Shown here piece by piece: positions 2,150-11,005 of a stretch of 11,702 nt of DNA. The notes under the pieces were generated by a model. It searched no databases, was not told the origin of the DNA, and saw only the letters and a program-made list of their open reading frames with translations. The stretch's first letter is position 1, and each line of letters starts with the position of its first letter. Source of the DNA: a virus (taxonomy: Duplodnaviria; Heunggongvirae; Uroviricota; Caudoviricetes); the IMG/VR virus record IMGVR_UViG_2744054854_000004, one strand, 5' to 3'. The translations under genes and the position numbers were made by a program.

Positions 2150-2189
2150 CTCCGGTTTTTATTCAGGGGGATGATCATGCTTATTGGCT
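2095..2189. repeat. Right copy of the 95-bp inverted repeat, overlapping the invertase promoter and first codons
   Basis: Exact reverse complement of 273..367. Confidence 0.9.
2096..2121. other. hix/gix/cix-like recombination site (right), about 50 bp upstream of the invertase gene
   Basis: TTCTCCCAAACC-AA-CGTTTATGAAAA, central AA at 2108..2109; mirror image of the left site. Confidence 0.7.
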
Positions 2190-2743
2190 ATGTACGCGTG
2201 TCAACAAATGACCAGAACACCGATTTGCAACGCAATGCACTGAACTGTGCGGGATGTGAGCGGATTTTTGAGGATAAAATCAGTGGCACCAAGTCCGACA
2301 GACCGGGGCTGAAAAAGCTGCTCAGGACACTATCGGCAGGAGACACGCTGGTTGTCTGGAAGCTGGACAGACTGGGGCGCAGTATGCGGCATCTTGTTAC
2401 GCTGATAGAAGAGCTGCGCCAGCGTGGCGTGAATTTCCGAAGCCTGACTGACAGTATTGATACCAGTACCCCAATGGGCCGTTTCTTTTTTCATGTCATG
2501 GGTGCCCTGGCTGAAATGGAACGCGAACTGATAGTTGAACGTACCAGGGCGGGGCTGGCTGCAGCTCGTGCTAAAGGCAGAGTAGGTGGACGCCGTCCTA
2601 AGTTGACCAGCGAACAGTGGGCACAGATTGGGCGTTTACTCGAGGCCGGAGAATCAAGACAGCGTATTGCACTGATTTTTGATGTAGGCGTTTCTACCAT
2701 TTATCGAAAATTTCCGGCAAATAAGAACAATAAATCTCCCTGA
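2177..2743 (+). CDS. pin: Serine-recombinase DNA invertase of the Hin/Gin/Cin/Pin family
   Basis: MLIGYVRVSTNDQNTDLQRNAL... catalytic N-terminus with the active-site Ser in VRVST, conserved LVVWKLDRLGRS and MGRFFFHVMGALAEMERELI, C-terminal HTH (VSTIYRKF). Start chosen at 2177 (MLIGY, 7 nt after SD AGGGGG 2164..2169); the upstream in-frame ATG at 2171 is the alternative. Confidence 0.95.
   Translation: MLIGYVRVSTNDQNTDLQRNALNCAGCERIFEDKISGTKSDRPGLKKLLRTLSAGDTLVVWKLDRLGRSMRHLVTLIEELRQRGVNFRSLTDSIDTSTPMGRFFFHVMGALAEMERELIVERTRAGLAAARAKGRVGGRRPKLTSEQWAQIGRLLEAGESRQRIALIFDVGVSTIYRKFPANKNNKSP
2198..2270. promoter_or_regulatory. Putative Fis-dependent recombinational enhancer (sis-like) inside the 5' end of the invertase gene
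   Basis: GTGTCAACAAATGACC (2198..2213) and a second G/C-bounded AT-centred element about 48 bp downstream (around 2246..2264) resemble the two Fis sites of the hin/gin enhancers, which sit at the same position in those genes. Recalled by similarity, not computed. Confidence 0.45.
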
Positions 2744-4583: not shown

Positions 4584-4637
4584 TATATCTGAACGGCGCG
4601 GGATACCGCGCCAGAACCCAATTGACAGGACAGCAAA

Positions 4638-4940
4638 ATGAGCGATAAGCAGACTGAAAAGACCATTCAACTGGATACCCCCATCAAGCGCGGTAAAACA
4701 GAAATCACCGAAATTGTGCTGCGTAAACCGCAGTCCGGTGCGCTGCGCGGTACACGCCTGCAGGCCATTATGGATATGGATGTAAACGCGATGATGACCG
4801 TGATCCCCCGCATCTCCAGTCCGGCACTGACTGCACAGGAAATTGCAGAGATGGACCCGGCAGATCTCACTGCCATGTCGGTTGAGGTTGTCACTTTTTT
4901 GTTGAAGAAGTCGGTGCTTGCCGGTTTACCGACAGCCTGA
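4638..4940 (+). CDS. E: Tail assembly chaperone gpE (zero-frame product)
   Basis: 100-aa ORF in the P2 E position immediately before the tape measure gene; contains the slippery heptamer near its 3' end. Confidence 0.85.
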   Translation: MSDKQTEKTIQLDTPIKRGKTEITEIVLRKPQSGALRGTRLQAIMDMDVNAMMTVIPRISSPALTAQEIAEMDPADLTAMSVEVVTFLLKKSVLAGLPTA

Positions 4941-5074
4941 CGGTTGACGATCTGGTGGCAGATATCGCCACCATTTTTCACTGGCCGCCATCCGTTACTG
5001 ACGTTATGCCGCTGACCGAAGTGCTGGAATGGCGGTATAAAGCGATTCAGAGAAGCGGGGCCAACGATGAGTGA
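4638..5074 (+). CDS. E': gpE+E' fusion made by programmed -1 ribosomal frameshift at T-TTT-TTG (4895..4901)
   Basis: Slippery heptamer is in the X-XXY-YYZ register of the E frame. The -1 frame stays open from 4898 to TGA 5072..5074 (translated by hand: ...FFVEEVGACRFTDSLTVDDLVADIATIFHWPPSVTDVMPLTEVLEWRYKAIQRSGANDE), ending 8 nt into the T gene, as in the P2 E/E' arrangement. Confidence 0.7.
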
Positions 5075-8000
5075 TAACAACCTGCGTCTGCAGGTCATTC
5101 TTAATGCGGTTGACAAGCTCACCCGCCCATTTCGATCTGCGCAGGCCAGTTCAAGAGAACTGGCTGCTGCTGTCAAAAAATCCCGCGATGCAATAAAGCA
5201 GCTTGATCAGGCCGGGAGCAGTCTGGACAGCTTCCGAAAGCTGCAGGCAGAAAATCAGAAATTAGGCGACAGGCTGAACTATGCCCGCCAGCGTGCAAAT
5301 TTGCTCAGTCAGGAACTGGGAGCGATGGGGCCGCCTTCGCAACGTCAGGTTGTTGCTCTGGGCCGTCAACGGCTGGCTGTTCAGCGCCTGGAAGAACGCC
5401 AGAAAAAGCTGCAGCAGCAGACGGCGCTTGTGCGTGCTGAACTGTACCGGGCGGGAATTTCTGCGAAAGACGATGCGGGAGCAACTGCCCGTTTAGCCCG
5501 TGAAACATCACGTTATAACCAGGAACTTTCGAAACAGGAGGCGCGGCTGAAGCGACTGGGGGAAGCTCAGCGCAGGATGAATGCAGCGCGTGCCAGTTAT
5601 GCCAGCTCGCTGGAGGTGCGCGATCGCATCGCAGGAGCCGGAGCCACTACCACGGCTGCAGGGCTGGCAATGGGTGCGCCAGTGATGGCAGCAGTAAAAA
5701 GCTATACCAGCATGGAAGATGCCATGAAAGGTGTGGCAAAGCAGGTCAATGGTCTGCGTGATGATAATGGCAACCGCACTGCGCGTTTTTACGAAATGCA
5801 GGATGCCATCAAGGCTGCCAGCGAACAGTTGCCGATGGAAAACGGTGCTGTGGACTTTGCCGCACTGGTTGAAGGTGGTGCGCGCATGAACGTCGCAAAT
5901 CCTGACGACAGCTGGGAAGACCAGAAACGTGACCTGCTGGCCTTCGCCAGTACGGCAGCAAAGGCTGCAACAGCCTTTGAGCTGCCAGCGGATGAACTGT
6001 CAGAAAGTCTGGGGAAAATCGCCCAGCTCTACAAAATCCCTACCCGCAATATTGAACAGCTCGGTGATGCGCTGAACTATCTGGATGATAACGCCATGTC
6101 GAAAGGGGCAGACATCATTGATGTCATGCAACGTCTGGGCGGTGTGGCTGACCGTCTGGATTATCGTAAAGCGGCGGCGCTGGGTTCCACCTTCCTGACA
6201 CTGGGCGCTGCGCCGGAGGTTGCAGCCAGTGCAGCAAATGCGATGGTGCGTGAATTGTCCATTGCCACCATGCAGAGCAAGAGTTTCTTTGAAGGGATGA
6301 ATCTGCTGAAACTCAATCCTGAAGTGATTGAAAAGCAGATGACGAAGGATGCGATGGGAACTATCCAGCGTGTGCTGGAGAAGGTGAACGCACTGCCGCA
6401 GGATAAGCGTCTGTCTGCCATGACCATGTTGTTTGGTAAAGAGTTTGGAGATGACGCGGCGAAACTGGCAAACAACCTTCCGGAACTGCAGCGCCAGTTA
6501 AAACTGACAGCGGGCAATGATGCGCTCGGTTCCATGCAGAAAGAATCCGACATCAACAAAGACTCACTTTCTGCTCAGTGGTTGCTGGTCAAAACCGGAG
6601 CGCAGAACACCTTCAGCAGCCTGGGCGAAACGCTGCGCCAGCCGCTGATGGATATTCTGTACACGGTGAAAAGCGTCACGGGGGCGTTGCGTCGCTGGGT
6701 GGAAGCTAACCCGGAACTGACAGGCACACTGATGAAAGCGTCGGCCGTTGTGGCTGCGGTTACCGTCGGCCTCGGCACCTTAGCGGTGGCGCTGGCTGCA
6801 GTGCTGGGGCCGCTGGCAGTGATCCGTCTGGGATTCTCTGTGCTGGGTATCAAAACGTTACCTTCCGTTACGGCAGCAGTAACACGAACCAGCAGCGCGT
6901 TGTCCTGGCTGGCTGGCGCTCCACTGGCACTGCTGCGACGCGGGCTTGCTTCATCGGGCAATGCTGCGGGTTTACTTACTGCGCCGTTGTCATCTTTGCG
7001 CCGTACGGCATCACTGACGGGAAATGTCCTGAAAACTGTAGCAGGTGCGCCAGTTGCACTGTTGCGGTCTGGATTATCCGGTTTACGTGCGGTTGCTGTG
7101 ATGTTTATGAATCCACTGGCGGTACTGCGCGGTGGACTGACCGCCGCAGGCGCGGTGCTGCGAGTGCTGGCATCTGGTCCGCTGGCGATGCTGCGCGTTG
7201 CTCTGTATGCCGTATCTGGTCTGTTAGGTGCTCTGCTCAGTCCGATAGGTCTTGTGGTTACTGCACTGGCGGGCGTGGCGCTGGTTGTCTGGAAATACTG
7301 GCAACCCATCACCGCATTTCTCGGTGGCGTGGTGGAAGGATTCAAAGCGGCGGCAGGTCCCGTCAGTGCTGCATTCGAACCACTTAAGCCTGTGTTTCAG
7401 TGGATTGGCGACAAAGTACAGGCGCTGTGGGGCTGGTTTACTGATCTGCTTACGCCCGTTAAGTCGACCTCTGCCGAACTGCAGAGTGCAGCGGCAATGG
7501 GGCGACGATTCGGGGAGGCACTGGCGGAAGGGCTGAATATGGTCATGCATCCGCTGGACTCCCTGAAATCCGGCGTTTCCTGGTTGCTGGAGAAGCTCGG
7601 CATTGTCAGTAAAGAGGCCGCAAAGGCAAAACTGCCGGAAAGCGTGACGCGTCAGCAACCTGCGACGGTGAATGCAGACGGTAAAGTGATGATGCCATCG
7701 GGTGGTTTTCCATCATGGGGATATGGCTTTGCGGGAATGTATGACAGCGGCGGGTATATCCCGCGCGGGCAGTTTGGCATCGTCGGTGAAAACGGGCCGG
7801 AAATTGTTAACGGCCCGGCAAATGTGACCAGCCGGAGAAATACAGCTGCACTGGCTGCCGTTGTTGCCGGAATGATGGGCGTTGCTGCCGCGCCTGCAGA
7901 GCTTCCACCGTTGCACCCTTTGGCACTTCCCGCGAAAGGCGGCGAAGCGATGGTGAGTCGTGCAGCCACTGTGCCGCCCGTTCAACGGATTGAGGCACCG

Positions 8001-8144
8001 ATGCAGATCATCATTCAGACGCAGCCAGGACAAAGTGCGCAGGATATTGCGCGGGAGGTGGCCCGCCAGCTTGATGAACGTGAACGCAGGCTGAAAGCAA
8101 AAGCCAGGAGTAACTACAGCGATCAGGGGGGATACGACGCATGA
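5067..8144 (+). CDS. T: Tail tape measure protein (P2 gpT homolog)
   Basis: 1025 aa; coiled-coil-rich N-terminal third, Ala/Gly/Leu-rich hydrophobic middle with degenerate peptide repeats, position between E/E' and U. Confidence 0.9.
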   Translation: MSDNNLRLQVILNAVDKLTRPFRSAQASSRELAAAVKKSRDAIKQLDQAGSSLDSFRKLQAENQKLGDRLNYARQRANLLSQELGAMGPPSQRQVVALGRQRLAVQRLEERQKKLQQQTALVRAELYRAGISAKDDAGATARLARETSRYNQELSKQEARLKRLGEAQRRMNAARASYASSLEVRDRIAGAGATTTAAGLAMGAPVMAAVKSYTSMEDAMKGVAKQVNGLRDDNGNRTARFYEMQDAIKAASEQLPMENGAVDFAALVEGGARMNVANPDDSWEDQKRDLLAFASTAAKAATAFELPADELSESLGKIAQLYKIPTRNIEQLGDALNYLDDNAMSKGADIIDVMQRLGGVADRLDYRKAAALGSTFLTLGAAPEVAASAANAMVRELSIATMQSKSFFEGMNLLKLNPEVIEKQMTKDAMGTIQRVLEKVNALPQDKRLSAMTMLFGKEFGDDAAKLANNLPELQRQLKLTAGNDALGSMQKESDINKDSLSAQWLLVKTGAQNTFSSLGETLRQPLMDILYTVKSVTGALRRWVEANPELTGTLMKASAVVAAVTVGLGTLAVALAAVLGPLAVIRLGFSVLGIKTLPSVTAAVTRTSSALSWLAGAPLALLRRGLASSGNAAGLLTAPLSSLRRTASLTGNVLKTVAGAPVALLRSGLSGLRAVAVMFMNPLAVLRGGLTAAGAVLRVLASGPLAMLRVALYAVSGLLGALLSPIGLVVTALAGVALVVWKYWQPITAFLGGVVEGFKAAAGPVSAAFEPLKPVFQWIGDKVQALWGWFTDLLTPVKSTSAELQSAAAMGRRFGEALAEGLNMVMHPLDSLKSGVSWLLEKLGIVSKEAAKAKLPESVTRQQPATVNADGKVMMPSGGFPSWGYGFAGMYDSGGYIPRGQFGIVGENGPEIVNGPANVTSRRNTAALAAVVAGMMGVAAAPAELPPLHPLALPAKGGEAMVSRAATVPPVQRIEAPMQIIIQTQPGQSAQDIAREVARQLDERERRLKAKARSNYSDQGGYDA

Positions 8145-8626
8145 TGATGGTGCTGGGATTGTACGTGTTTATGCTGCGCACCGTGCCGTATCAGGAGCTG
8201 CAGTATCAACGCAGCTGGCGACATGCGGCAAACAGCCGGGTAAACCGACGTCCGTCCACGCAGTTTCTGGGACCGGACAACGACATGCTGACGCTTTCCG
8301 GTGTTCTTATGCCGGAGATAACAGGTGGCAGGCTGTCGTTGCTGGCACTGGAGCAGATGGCAGAACAGGGGAAAGCATGGCCCCTGATTGAAGGCAGCGG
8401 CACGATTTATGGCATGTATGTGATTGAGGGACTGAATCAGACTAAAACGGAGTTTTTCCGCGACGGTATGCCGCGCCGGATTGAGTTCACCCTGTCGCTC
8501 AAACGGGTGGATGAATCCCTGTCCGATATGTTCGGTGATCTCAGTGCGCAACTGAATAATCTGCAGGAAACGGCAACGTCTGCCTTAAGCGATATCAGTA
8601 AAACGGTGGGAGGGCTGCTGTCGTGA
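8141..8626 (+). CDS. U: Tail protein gpU homolog
   Basis: 161 aa; start overlaps the T stop (ATGA at 8141..8144); P2 U-like size and position. Confidence 0.88.
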   Translation: MMMVLGLYVFMLRTVPYQELQYQRSWRHAANSRVNRRPSTQFLGPDNDMLTLSGVLMPEITGGRLSLLALEQMAEQGKAWPLIEGSGTIYGMYVIEGLNQTKTEFFRDGMPRRIEFTLSLKRVDESLSDMFGDLSAQLNNLQETATSALSDISKTVGGLLS

Positions 8627-9791: not shown

Positions 9792-10010
9792 ATGATGAAT
9801 TGTCCAAAGTGTGGTCATGCGGCACACACAAGGAGCAGTTTTCAAGTAACTGAAAGCACCAAAGAGCGTTACTGCCAGTGCCAAAATATTAACTGCGGGA
9901 GCACTTTTGTTACCCATGAAACAGTGGTCCGGTTTATTGTGACACCCGCACTGATTGCTACTGCTCCTCCACATCCATTGCCAGGTGGTCAGGGGCATAT
10001 GAATTTTTGA
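9792..10010 (+). CDS. ogr: Ogr/Delta-family zinc-finger late gene transcriptional activator
   Basis: 72 aa from the ATG at 9792: MMNCPKCGHAAHTRSS...TKERYCQCQNINCGSTF...HPLPGGQ closely matches recalled P2 Ogr (MFHCPLCQHAAHARTS...TKERYHQCQNVNCSATF...HPLPSGQ), with the four Cys at the same positions. The longer ORF from 9747 would start inside the putative promoter. Confidence 0.88.
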   Translation: MMNCPKCGHAAHTRSSFQVTESTKERYCQCQNINCGSTFVTHETVVRFIVTPALIATAPPHPLPGGQGHMNF

Positions 10011-10018
10011 GAAAGAGA

Positions 10019-10040
10019 ACCTGCTACGGCAGGTTTTTAT
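10019..10040. terminator. Bidirectional rho-independent terminator between convergent ogr and the cargo gene
   Basis: Stem CCTGC (10020..10024), loop TACG, stem GCAGG (10029..10033), followed by TTTTTATT on the plus strand and by TTCTCTTTC on the minus strand; 9 nt after the ogr stop and directly abutting the cargo gene stop (TAA 10037..10039). Confidence 0.7.
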
Positions 10041-10519
10041 TCATCTGGGATCTCACCCGTTTCAAGAAAATGTATAAAGCCAGGCTCATCTATGATGATT
10101 GTGCCTTTCATCCTGGCTGCCGATACTTTTGATGGGCCTGCATTGTAACCGCAACAGAGCATCTGAAGGCTTTGGGTTACAGAGGTTCTTACCGTTAATC
10201 CTTGTTCATTCGCCTTATCAACCAATCTTTCTTTATCTGCTTTCTTAAATCCGGTGAAACACACATCGAATGTATTTTTTTTCGGACCAGACTGCTTAGT
10301 GAGATGTGAGTAGTTTTCGGGGAGGAATGATGTGCATTCCTGAATGGCTTGTTCTGGTGAATCGTACTGTTTAAGAATGCGGTCTTTTCGGAAGGTTTTT
10401 ATTCGATCGGTGTTCTTACAAATGCCCTGTATATGATTTTCGCTATAACTGATGCTCTGTATAGAGTGAACACCGATACGACCATTTGCATTGATGTAAA
10501 CAAAGTGAAGTTCTTCCAT
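10037..10519 (-). CDS. Hypothetical 160-aa cargo (moron) protein: N-terminal WYL-like domain plus C-terminal BRCT-like domain; function unknown
   Basis: Strong SD AAGAGG 6 nt before the ATG (10517..10519); uninterrupted ORF. Visibly AT-richer than the flanking tail genes (by eye, not computed). Residues about 85..158 (CFTGFKKADKERLVDKANEQGLTVRTSVTQSLQMLCCGYNAGPSKVSAARMKGTIIIDEPGFIHFL) align by eye to the LigA-type BRCT pattern. Residues about 5..47 (FVYINANGRIGVHSIQSISYSENHIQGICKNTDRIKTFRKDRIL) fit the WYL-domain pattern ending in R-x-F-R-x-D-R-I. Confidence 0.75.
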   Translation of the reverse strand: MEELHFVYINANGRIGVHSIQSISYSENHIQGICKNTDRIKTFRKDRILKQYDSPEQAIQECTSFLPENYSHLTKQSGPKKNTFDVCFTGFKKADKERLVDKANEQGLTVRTSVTQSLQMLCCGYNAGPSKVSAARMKGTIIIDEPGFIHFLETGEIPDE

Positions 10520-10545
10520 GTCAAACCTCTTTGCATGATTTCAAG

Positions 10546-10584
10546 ATGGCGACAGGCAAGATGGACGCAAAAGTCTGTCGCCAT
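10546..10584. repeat. Perfect 10-bp palindrome with 19-bp spacer, containing a direct repeat, in the 5' region of the cargo gene
   Basis: ATGGCGACAG (10546..10555) and CTGTCGCCAT (10575..10584) are exact reverse complements. CAAGATGG occurs twice in direct orientation (10542..10549 and 10557..10564). Lies 27..65 bp upstream of the cargo gene ATG. Confidence 0.6.
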
Positions 10585-10603
10585 TTTGCCGCCACTACCT
10601 AAG

Positions 10604-10632
10604 AAAAAGGGGCTACGCTTTCACGTAACCCC
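10604..10632 (-). terminator. Rho-independent terminator of ssrA
   Basis: On the minus strand, 10 nt after the tmRNA CCA end: GGGGUUACG, 6-nt loop, CGUAGCCCC (9-bp stem with one G-U pair), followed by UUUUUCUU. Confidence 0.75.
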
Positions 10633-10642
10633 TTGATTTATT

Positions 10643-11005
10643 TGGTGGAGCTGGCGGGAGTTGAACCCGCGTCCGAAATTCCTACATCCTCGGTACTACA
10701 TGCTTAGTCAGTCTTTACATTCGCTTGCCAGCTGCGGACGGACACGCCACTAACAAACTAGCCTGATTAAGTTTTAACGCTTCAACCCCAGGCAGGGCTT
10801 CCACGCGATCTCTTTTGGGTTTGACCTCTCTTGATCCCCGTTCTAAGAGCGGAGGCTAGGGAGAGAGGGCTCTAAGCAGGTTATTAAGCTGCTAAAGCGT
10901 AGTTTTCGTCGTTTGCGACTATTTTTTGCGGCTTTTTACGAGGCCAACCGCCCCTCGGCATGCACCTTGGGTTTCGCAAATCCCGTCGAATCCAGAATCA
11001 GCCCC
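10643..11005 (-). ncRNA. ssrA: tmRNA (SsrA, 10Sa RNA), mature 363-nt form
   Basis: Reverse complement reads GGGGCUGAUUCUGGAUUCGACGGG...CGGGUUCAACUCCCGCCAGCUCCACCA, matching E. coli tmRNA as recalled. Tag reading frame GCA AAC GAC GAA AAC UAC GCU UUA GCA GCU UAA (ANDENYALAA) at 10884..10916 on the minus strand. Confidence 0.97.

Follow-up and report, generated by a model that had tools for sequence, protein, structure and literature searches.

The window analysed here is a stretch of 11,702 nucleotides of DNA from a Caudoviricetes virus (IMG/VR record IMGVR_UViG_2744054854_000004). It corresponds to the right-hand part of a P2-like (Peduoviridae) prophage integrated in the host tmRNA gene ssrA and runs, in order, through an invertible tail-fibre segment with its invertase and the genes FI, FII, E, T, U, D and ogr. 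Between ogr and the right attachment site, attR, is the prophage's final gene, which encodes a protein of 160 residues that we refer to as the WYL-BRCT protein, after the two domains assigned to it below. It is identical to RefSeq WP_048231062.1, annotated as "hypothetical protein" in E. coli LS4, a genome that is 100% identical to the window over this region. The features of the locus, in window numbering, are as follows.

9792-10010, plus strand: ogr.
10018-10035, no strand assigned: hairpin terminator common to the convergent ogr and WYL-BRCT genes, from a terminator scan; it abuts the stop codon at 10037-10039.
10037-10519, minus strand: WYL-BRCT coding sequence, complete, 160 residues plus stop, with an ATG start, from the list of open reading frames (ORFs).
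10040-10057, minus strand: C-terminal tail G-E-I-P-D-E (family motif L-E-T-G-E-I-P).
10058-10267, minus strand: residues 85-154, predicted BRCT domain of the RFC1/LigA DNA-binding class.
10268-10363, minus strand: two short helices (residues 55-62 and 67-73) and a variable linker (residues 74-84, approximately), from the secondary structure of the AlphaFold (AF2) model.
10364-10519, minus strand: residues 1-52, predicted WYL-type five-stranded Sm-like/SH3-like β-barrel (barrel residues 3-52 in the model).
10526-10530, minus strand: Shine-Dalgarno sequence AGAGG, 6 nt before the ATG, read from the sequence.
10575-10594, minus strand: tandem TGGCGRC repeat (TGGCGGCAAAATGGCGACAG) of 20 nt with 11-bp spacing, in the 5' leader region of the gene.
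10607-10634, minus strand: phage-supplied ssrA terminator hairpin with a 12-bp stem and a T-run, from the terminator scan and RNA folding.
10638-10687, no strand assigned: attR core, a 50-nt direct repeat of the ssrA 3' end and the right boundary of the prophage.
10643-11005, minus strand: host tmRNA gene ssrA, with smpB beyond.

The exact 50-nt direct repeat forms both attL and attR in the E. coli LS4 prophage. The WYL-BRCT gene converges with the tail and ogr genes, and its GC content of 0.41 (0.39 at third codon positions, GC3) is well below the 0.54–0.57 of D, U, T and FI (GC3 of 0.60 in D) and the 0.47 of ogr, so that a preliminary description of this DNA was right to call it AT-richer than its neighbours and transcribed opposite to the tail operon. 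The ORF is judged to be a real gene under purifying selection and no chance ORF, because orthologs from Klebsiella, a Yersinia phage and Pantoea differ at a proportion of only 0.18–0.26 of nonsynonymous sites (pN) while synonymous sites are saturated (pS 0.85–0.92), the exact protein is present on 887 contigs, and the ogr-gene-ssrA junction occurs in 171 of 5426 complete E. coli genomes.

The AlphaFold model was based on an alignment of 51 family sequences (alignment A1). It has a mean pLDDT (predicted local distance difference test score) of 91.7 and shows a five-stranded barrel, then a pair of short helices, a linker of variable length and, at residues 85–154, an α/β domain. Confidence is lower in the linker, with a pLDDT of 68 for the residue block 71–80, and the length of this region varies in the alignment. 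The barrel ends in K-T-F-R-K-D-R-I and includes the conserved stretch T42-F43-R44-K45-D46-R47, of which T42, F43, R44, D46 and R47 are kept in at least 90% of the sequences; Y8 is also conserved. The Pfam WYL model (PF13280) is matched by four of the 51 close homologs, the best with an E-value of 1.5e-5, and remote homologs containing the whole module score 22.8–28.6 bits on it against a gathering cutoff of 21.8. A 73-sequence profile searched against the PDB matched the WYL domain of PafBC (E-value 3e-4) and that of PafC (0.014), and the PafBC alignment runs through Y-x-x-G-x-C...R-T-F-R-x-D-R-I. The model and these matches together predict that the N-terminal ~52 residues form a WYL-type Sm-like barrel. 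Searches with Pfam and NCBIfam found neither a helix-turn-helix (HTH) motif nor an enzymatic domain. The barrel starts at residue 3, and it is followed by the helices, linker and BRCT domain instead of a WCX domain, of which there is none.

According to the viral fold database BFVD, many phages encode standalone WYL-like barrels of 50–115 residues, all uncharacterised, with examples in Vibrio phage Vp_R1, Xanthomonas phage Xaa_vB_phi31 and Escherichia phage Paul. From these predicted folds, WYL proteins that have no output domain appear to be a broader phage theme.

The α/β fold of the C-terminal half was confirmed as that of a BRCT domain. The E. coli protein itself scores 19.6 bits on the Pfam BRCT model (PF00533), for which the cutoff is 21.3, and 36 of the 51 homologs match it at E<0.01. 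When a profile of this half was compared with solved structures, the closest were the BRCT domains of human RFC1 (3.4e-6) and yeast Rfc1 (1.8e-5), followed by those of Thermus LigA (2.3e-5 and 4.3e-5). Residues T89, G90 and K131 are invariant in the 51 sequences and align to FTG...GPKK in yeast Rfc1 and to GQSK in human RFC1. The T-G...K residues occupy the phosphate-pocket positions of RFC1 p140 and of phosphopeptide-binding BRCT domains, and in the RFC1 BRCT this pocket binds the 5'-phosphate of DNA. By profile and alignment, then, the C-terminal half is assigned to the DNA-binding RFC1/LigA class of BRCT domains, and its phosphate pocket is predicted to be intact. Past the domain, T154 and G155 are kept in at least 90% of the sequences, and the tail motif persists in relatives that have extra sequence beyond it.

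The BRCT domain also accounts for the names under which members of the family have been deposited. The protein is a full-length member of phrog_2561 (E-value 3.6e-77), a family labelled "DNA ligase" (PHROG 2561), as are the proteins of phages 500465-1 and PHL101, and that of phage Cartapus is labelled "putative exonuclease". An identity as LigA was rejected, as the protein has only 160 residues and contains no adenylation domain, OB fold, zinc finger or HhH domain; NCBIfam LigA models are matched only over their last ~70–100 positions, at 11–19.5 bits against cutoffs of 369–1051. A DEDDh exonuclease was likewise rejected, NF004719 being matched only at positions 229–307 of 331 and at 26 bits against a cutoff of 389. 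Membership in the PADLOC family PDC-S48 was set aside as well: the E-value is 1.8e-7, but the match is limited to the BRCT domain, within profile positions ~322–406 of 411 (335–406 for the E. coli protein), and the N-terminal 320 positions are left unmatched even by the longer relatives. Because only the BRCT tails of the LigA and DEDDh models match, the ligase and exonuclease labels are artefacts of BRCT domain similarity. A search of the viral folds in BFVD returned only uncharacterised relatives and ligase BRCT domains.

The preliminary description had recognised both halves by eye, the first as a WYL-type barrel ending in R-x-F-R-x-D-R-I and the second as a BRCT domain like that of NAD-dependent ligases, with no HTH or enzymatic domain, and the profile and structure searches that it proposed for the two halves upheld all of this. 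It had also found no match for the architecture as a whole. That remains so in the sense that no characterised family matches; on the other hand, the combination of WYL with BRCT is among the WYL fusions listed in a 2014 survey of CARF and WYL domains (Makarova et al. 2014, PMC4012209), and the family exists as PHROG 2561. The architecture is therefore already catalogued (PMC4012209, PHROG 2561), though neither source assigns it a tested function, and it is the function that we infer here. Literature searches (WYL, BRCT and prophage; BRCT and phage defence) found no functional study of the family, and the one apparent hit was a false match to mutant names.

The family is large. A profile search of 1.84 billion representative sequences yielded 211 clusters at E<1e-30 and 894 at E<1e-10. 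Among annotated phages nearly all carriers are temperate and P2-like, with hosts in Escherichia, Yersinia, Vibrio, Burkholderia and Mannheimia, and one Pseudomonas phage also carries a member; a scan of IMG/VR returned mostly near-identical loci of the E. coli type and added little diversity. Many relatives are longer than the E. coli protein. Of 46 N-terminally extended homologs, approximately 40 have one to five transmembrane (TM) helices ahead of the module as predicted with a simple hydropathy window rule, and two C-terminally extended homologs end in predicted TM helices. For a soluble C-terminal extension (the phrog_36782 type) and several of the N-terminal ones, Pfam and PADLOC gave no match and PHROG none that was informative, and among the fusion partners only the TM anchors gave clues. 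Beside several standalone versions, in several phages, lies a gene for a single-TM protein, a neighbour that the E. coli and Klebsiella versions do not have.

The module itself is multiplied in some relatives: P0173 contains the WYL-BRCT unit twice, in P0139 a single BRCT domain follows two WYL-like barrels, and P0121 has five BRCT repeats. In a metagenome-assembled genome of a gammaproteobacterium (locus L115, positions 4601–5206), the ORF downstream of the family member begins, as judged by eye, with a WYL-like barrel (…CHMRNARRTFKLANIL…) and continues into an unrelated C-terminal region; this second barrel was not singled out in the Pfam tally. The pair hints at paired WYL proteins.

The position of the gene was compared across the family. 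In Mannheimia phage PHL101 it follows the gene for a CI-like repressor by 4 nt, and its annotated ribosome-binding site lies inside cI. The order in Vibrio phage PV94 is HTH repressor, WYL-BRCT gene, small ORF and integrase, in Pectobacterium it is CI, WYL-BRCT gene, 289-residue ORF and integrase, and in Serratia an HTH gene and a Flk_N-like gene precede the WYL-BRCT gene and the integrase. In Burkholderia an XRE gene and an ORF precede the WYL-BRCT gene, which abuts gpD. Membrane-anchored versions are found in the same surroundings: a prophage of Azotobacter that is not P2-like has a divergent Cro gene opposite an HTH_3+S24 repressor that is followed by a 3TM-WYL-BRCT gene, and on two P2-like metagenome contigs a repressor, in some cases with one gene intervening, precedes a TM-WYL-BRCT gene that converges with gpD. 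In Mannheimia, Vibrio PV94, Pectobacterium, Serratia, Azotobacter and the two contigs, the WYL-BRCT gene is read in the same direction as the repressor gene.

A species-dereplicated scan gave 49 loci. For the 26 outside the E. coli-type arrangement, we tallied the nearest upstream co-oriented ORF within 130 nt, which was a Phage_CI_repr protein in seven (five of them with Phage_CI_C), an HTH_3+Peptidase_S24 protein in five and some other HTH protein in another one or two. A phage repressor is thus the immediately preceding co-oriented gene in about half of these loci. The linked repressors are mutually unrelated (186-type CI, LexA-like S24 and small XRE proteins), and because their types differ, the gene is better regarded as cargo than as part of one particular switch. 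The other neighbours comprise AbiGi, AbiTii, a KAP NTPase, Mrr_cat, Mrr_N+Mrr_cat, MrcB_N/HNH, DUF4209, Phd/YefM and integrases. The family is a large and recurrent accessory member of prophage lysogeny (repressor-integrase) modules, in which its genes almost always lie, usually just downstream of the repressor. The preliminary description had presented the gene as a moron of the slot between ogr and the attachment site, and this has to be replaced by the picture of a widespread lysogeny-module gene.

The E. coli arrangement can be understood from the same module. The prophage of LS4 carries int and the gene for a 186-type CI at its attL end, opposite the WYL-BRCT gene but sharing its strand, and in the circular Yersinia phage MLG42, the protein of which is 73% identical, cI is followed by int, approximately 290 nt containing attP, and then the gene. 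The E. coli arrangement is this lysogeny module split by attP, and integration moves the gene to the other end of the prophage, where it comes to lie 123 nt downstream of ssrA and co-oriented with it. In the free circular phage the gene would stand downstream of int in the cI-int transcription unit, and in the integrated state behind the host ssrA; with these two placements across attP, its expression might depend on the integration state.

The preliminary description had suggested looking for homologs at this position in other prophages. Klebsiella has the same smpB-ssrA-gene-ogr arrangement, and in Pantoea the gene is again proximal to the attachment site, at a different integration site. 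It had also noted that P2 has no gene here, and the annotated P2 record bears this out, with only a terminator, an Int arm site, an IHF site and the attP core in the ~100 bp from ogr to attP. The slot is empty in Salmonella phage RE-2010 as well, and a Klebsiella Gegavirus carries a different, 73-residue ORF in it. The WYL-BRCT gene is accessory, being present in some and absent from others among related phages. In Pantoea sp. At-9b (locus L010, positions 6843–8345), a gene for a YcaO-domain protein of 417 residues and a 68-residue ORF lie between the WYL-BRCT gene and ogr, and these are further cargo in the same slot.

Between ssrA and the gene lies a leader with several elements. The ssrA terminator hairpin is on the phage side of the att core. 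The tandem TGGCGRC element is conserved in Klebsiella, and also in Pantoea despite the different attachment site, and a second copy is found between the int stop codon and the attL core (L005, positions 5112–5131, minus strand), where 0.03 would be expected by chance. The core of P2 is flanked on either side by Int arm sites, and by analogy the TGGCGRC copies are probably Int arm-type binding sites of the attP of this phage group. A reading of TGGCGGCAAAATGGCGACAG as a promoter or sigma-54 element was set aside, since the second copy across the att core beside int fits Int arm sites. The leader (10505–10645, minus strand) is strongly structured, with a folding energy of -51.7 kcal/mol and a z-score of -4.7. 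Its fold consists of the ssrA terminator, an extended imperfect hairpin that covers the putative arm sites and a small hairpin in which the Shine-Dalgarno sequence is in the loop and the start codon is paired; the middle hairpin is not conserved in Klebsiella. Candidates for transcription of the gene in the E. coli lineage are read-through from ssrA, read-through from int in the circular form, and an unrecognised promoter.

Elsewhere in the LS4 prophage (L005, positions 12899–14332), the gpA-gpQ defence hotspot holds a gene for a SEFIR-domain protein, with a DinI-like (Tum-like) gene just upstream. The same prophage also carries an Apl/Cox-like gene.

Taking these observations together, we tentatively propose, with a probability of about 0.45, that the WYL-BRCT protein is expressed in the lysogen as a sensor or binder of single-stranded DNA (ssDNA) and 5'-phosphate ends and serves in superinfection exclusion or abortive infection. 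The proposal builds on what the analysis established, namely that the gene is real and accessory, that its product has the two folds and the conserved pocket residues, that it shares its synteny with lysogeny modules, and that relatives with membrane anchors exist; that the protein is made in lysogens, binds DNA and protects the cell is what we infer beyond this. The WYL barrel would bind a short stretch of ssDNA, as do the WYL domains of DriD, CapW and PafBC, and the BRCT domain, being of the RFC1/LigA type, would bind a 5'-phosphorylated DNA terminus or nick through the T-G...K pocket. Together, the two domains could recognise, in invading DNA, junctions of single- and double-stranded DNA, cohesive ends, nicks, nicked genomes, or intermediates of replication and recombination. 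Having bound such a structure, the protein might occlude it, so that end joining or replication is blocked, or signal to a partner, and in membrane-tethered relatives, or those with small membrane-protein neighbours, this could link detection with the place where DNA enters the cell or with an effector in the membrane. Exclusion or abortive infection would result.

There is precedent for both parts of this proposal. In phage lambda, rexAB lies downstream of cI. More generally, superinfection exclusion (Sie) genes belong to the lysogeny module, are transcribed from the prophage and mostly encode membrane-tethered proteins (PMC3952083). CapW and DriD have WYL domains that bind ssDNA and lose sensing when the pocket is mutated, and CapW, DriD and PafBC sense ssDNA as a damage signal (PMC11662680). 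The preliminary description had offered defence, anti-defence and DNA-damage sensing as candidate roles; repressor linkage, accessory status, defence-type neighbours, membrane anchors and the Sie precedent all favour a role of the WYL-BRCT protein in defence or exclusion by the lysogen.

A number of points weigh against the exclusion proposal. On the side of the WYL barrel, the ssDNA crevice of CapW and DriD is completed by the WCX domain, which is absent here. The W-Y-L triad is degenerate, being N-H-I in the protein and x-Y-I/L across the family, and the E. coli protein has no match to Pfam WYL at E≤10. Two of the four arginines with which CapW contacts ssDNA (RWHVR motif) have no obvious sequence equivalent in the barrel, and only R-x-F-R-x-D-R of the WYL pocket is alignable and clearly conserved. 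The BRCT domain, for its part, could have a protein and not DNA as its ligand. The E. coli protein has neither a membrane anchor nor an adjacent partner gene, and the anchors of its relatives come from the hydropathy rule given above. With regard to expression, the preliminary description had counted a Shine-Dalgarno sequence of its own among the hallmarks of the gene, and this is present (AGAGG, 6 nt upstream); a scan of the gene's strand from ssrA to the ATG, however, detected no sigma-70-like promoter, and integration separates the gene from the cI-int operon and places it beyond the ssrA terminator. Finally, the counts of defence-gene neighbours are small, PADLOC has no model for the family, and a 2026 survey places the P2 defence hotspots at gpA-gpQ, int-att, int-gpA and the tail genes (PMC13586616); the ogr-attR locus is none of the described hotspots (gpA-gpQ with old/tin, tail-gene with Z/fun).

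Four other explanations were weighed. The protein could modulate the phage's own life cycle, as a sensor of DNA damage or ssDNA that tunes the repressor switch, induction, or integration and excision through contacts of the BRCT domain with CI, Int or Cox/Apl. The gene is always beside the repressor, the integrase or both, in E. coli it abuts attP and the putative Int arm sites, its position across attP would tie transcription to the integration state, and the damage sensing by DriD, PafBC and CapW described above would suit such a part. We nonetheless hold this to be unlikely, as the linked repressors are unrelated to each other and the LexA-like S24 type already senses RecA, the LS4 prophage already has its DinI/Tum-like and Apl/Cox-like genes, and the close relatives P2 and RE-2010 cycle normally with the gene absent. 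Membrane-anchored versions, and copies outside prophages beside Abi and restriction genes, also fit it poorly.

A role in anti-defence or self-protection appears still less probable. Here the protein would act as a decoy or sponge, taking up ssDNA or covering 5'-phosphate ends so that the DNA of the phage itself does not trigger host sensors, meaning WYL-regulated CBASS and BREX systems, RecBCD-dependent systems and end-sensing nucleases. A sensor-like WYL domain with no output domain, joined to a BRCT that resembles that of host LigA, is what such a sponge might look like, small standalone WYL proteins are common in phages, and CapW derepresses CBASS upon binding ssDNA, prophage induction included (PMC11662680). 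Co-transcription with a repressor, however, implies expression in the lysogen and not during early infection or induction, the membrane anchors of many relatives are unexpected for a cytoplasmic sponge, and affinities in the micromolar range, as given by the Kd values of CapW (PMC11662680), would require high protein levels.

The closest functional reading of the "DNA ligase" and "exonuclease" labels is an accessory of DNA metabolism that would, for example, bring host LigA, or some other repair factor, to the cohesive ends or nicks of the phage. The similarity of the BRCT domain to those of LigA and RFC1 and the annotations of the phage records and of PHROG 2561 speak for this, but the protein has no adenylation, OB, zinc-finger, HhH or DEDDh domain and the NCBIfam matches are confined to BRCT tails; moreover, the gene is dispensable in close relatives and sits in the lysogeny and not the replication module, which makes this reading quite improbable. 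Protection against non-phage DNA, by binding ssDNA that enters in transformation or conjugation and so opposing chromosomal curing or plasmid entry, is the least credible of all: an ssDNA-type sensor with membrane anchors in relatives, and the natural competence of many hosts of distant homologs (Pasteurellaceae, Vibrio, Azotobacter, Pseudomonas), would agree with it, but E. coli and Klebsiella, in which this clade is common, are not notably competent.

The exclusion proposal can be extended to the family as a whole. WYL-BRCT proteins would then be an unrecognised but widespread class of repressor-linked prophage immunity proteins that have no enzymatic effector and, whether anchored in the membrane or not, physically capture structures of incoming or replicating foreign DNA in which an ssDNA tract adjoins a nick or 5'-phosphate end, in this E. 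coli lineage with expression that possibly depends on integration; in this general form we regard the idea as speculative and doubtful. If lysogens are protected, the system would be a compact one of a single gene with an unusual logic, relying on two domains that recognise nucleic acids and having no nuclease, NADase or pore domain of its own, and if the proposal is true, WYL domains would serve defence as direct effectors or adaptors and not only in its transcriptional regulators. In any case the family is common, with hundreds of clusters at 50% identity and presence in ~3% of complete E. coli genomes, and correction of the ligase and exonuclease mislabelling is useful in itself. Linkage to a repressor offers a simple genomic rule for finding more lysogeny-module cargo, and the T-G...K pocket and the R-T-F-R-x-D-R motif are immediate mutational handles.

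The remainder of the window contains a second region of interest at its left end. Positions 1 to ~172 do not look phage-like in sequence, and we take them to resemble the promoter region of an E. coli rRNA operon. They are followed by exactly 100 N at 173–272, from which it follows that the window derives from a draft assembly that was scaffolded; its joint coincides with the left arm of the inverted repeat of the tail-fibre region. The features of this region are as follows.

273-368 and 2094-2189: arms of a perfect 96-nt inverted repeat, flanking a segment of 1725 nt.
313-648/650-1078, plus strand: tail-fibre C-terminus and assembly ORFs.
1643-2149/1050-1643, minus strand: opposed tail-fibre C-terminus and assembly ORFs.
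2171-2743, plus strand: Hin/Gin-type recombinase (invertase) gene, adjoining the invertible segment.

The first 19 residues of both fibre ORFs are identical. The 1725-nt segment is a host-range switch like the G segment of Mu, whereas P2 itself has no such switch.

Among known systems, the N-terminal half of the WYL-BRCT protein is most like the regulators of winged-HTH (wHTH), WYL and WCX architecture, CapW, BrxR, DriD and PafBC, with which it has in common the WYL fold and the R/K-T-F-R-x-D-R-I motif. They are the top structural matches of the barrel, superimposing at 1.6–2.1 Å over ~54 residues, and the only significant sequence-profile matches of this half in the PDB, and it is from them that ssDNA is borrowed, by analogy, as the likely class of ligand. 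The WYL-BRCT protein differs from them in that wHTH and WCX domains are absent, the triad is degenerate and the output is a BRCT domain, and because of the missing wHTH and WCX and the BRCT output, it is not a transcription regulator of that family. The BRCT domains of RFC1 (p140/Rfc1) and LigA have the same fold as its C-terminal half and are its closest solved relatives in sequence (E-values of 3e-6 to 4e-5), with the T/S-G and K residues kept; here, however, a stand-alone BRCT of 70 residues is mounted on a WYL barrel, with neither the AAA+ domain of the clamp loader nor the catalytic domains of the ligase. With PDC-S48 the protein has a C-terminal BRCT in common, and the N-terminal 320 profile positions differ. 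In domain composition it resembles a WYL sensor joined to a DNA-end-binding BRCT, yet it falls outside the wHTH-WYL-WCX, LigA, DEDDh and PDC-S48 families.

The Sie and Abi genes of lysogeny modules used for comparison were lambda RexAB, lactococcal Sie2009, Ltp of S. thermophilus, Glo of Vibrio phage K139, and Old, Tin and Fun of P2. The WYL-BRCT gene is like these in being accessory cargo that lies with or after the repressor, beside the integrase, and is AT-richer than the phage core, and many of its relatives are, like most Sie proteins, predicted to be membrane-tethered. In both sequence and fold it is unrelated to all of them, and unlike the extracytoplasmic Ltp and Glo, its predicted domains would be cytoplasmic nucleic-acid binders. 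As a functional class, the WYL-BRCT protein fits prophage lysogeny-module cargo.

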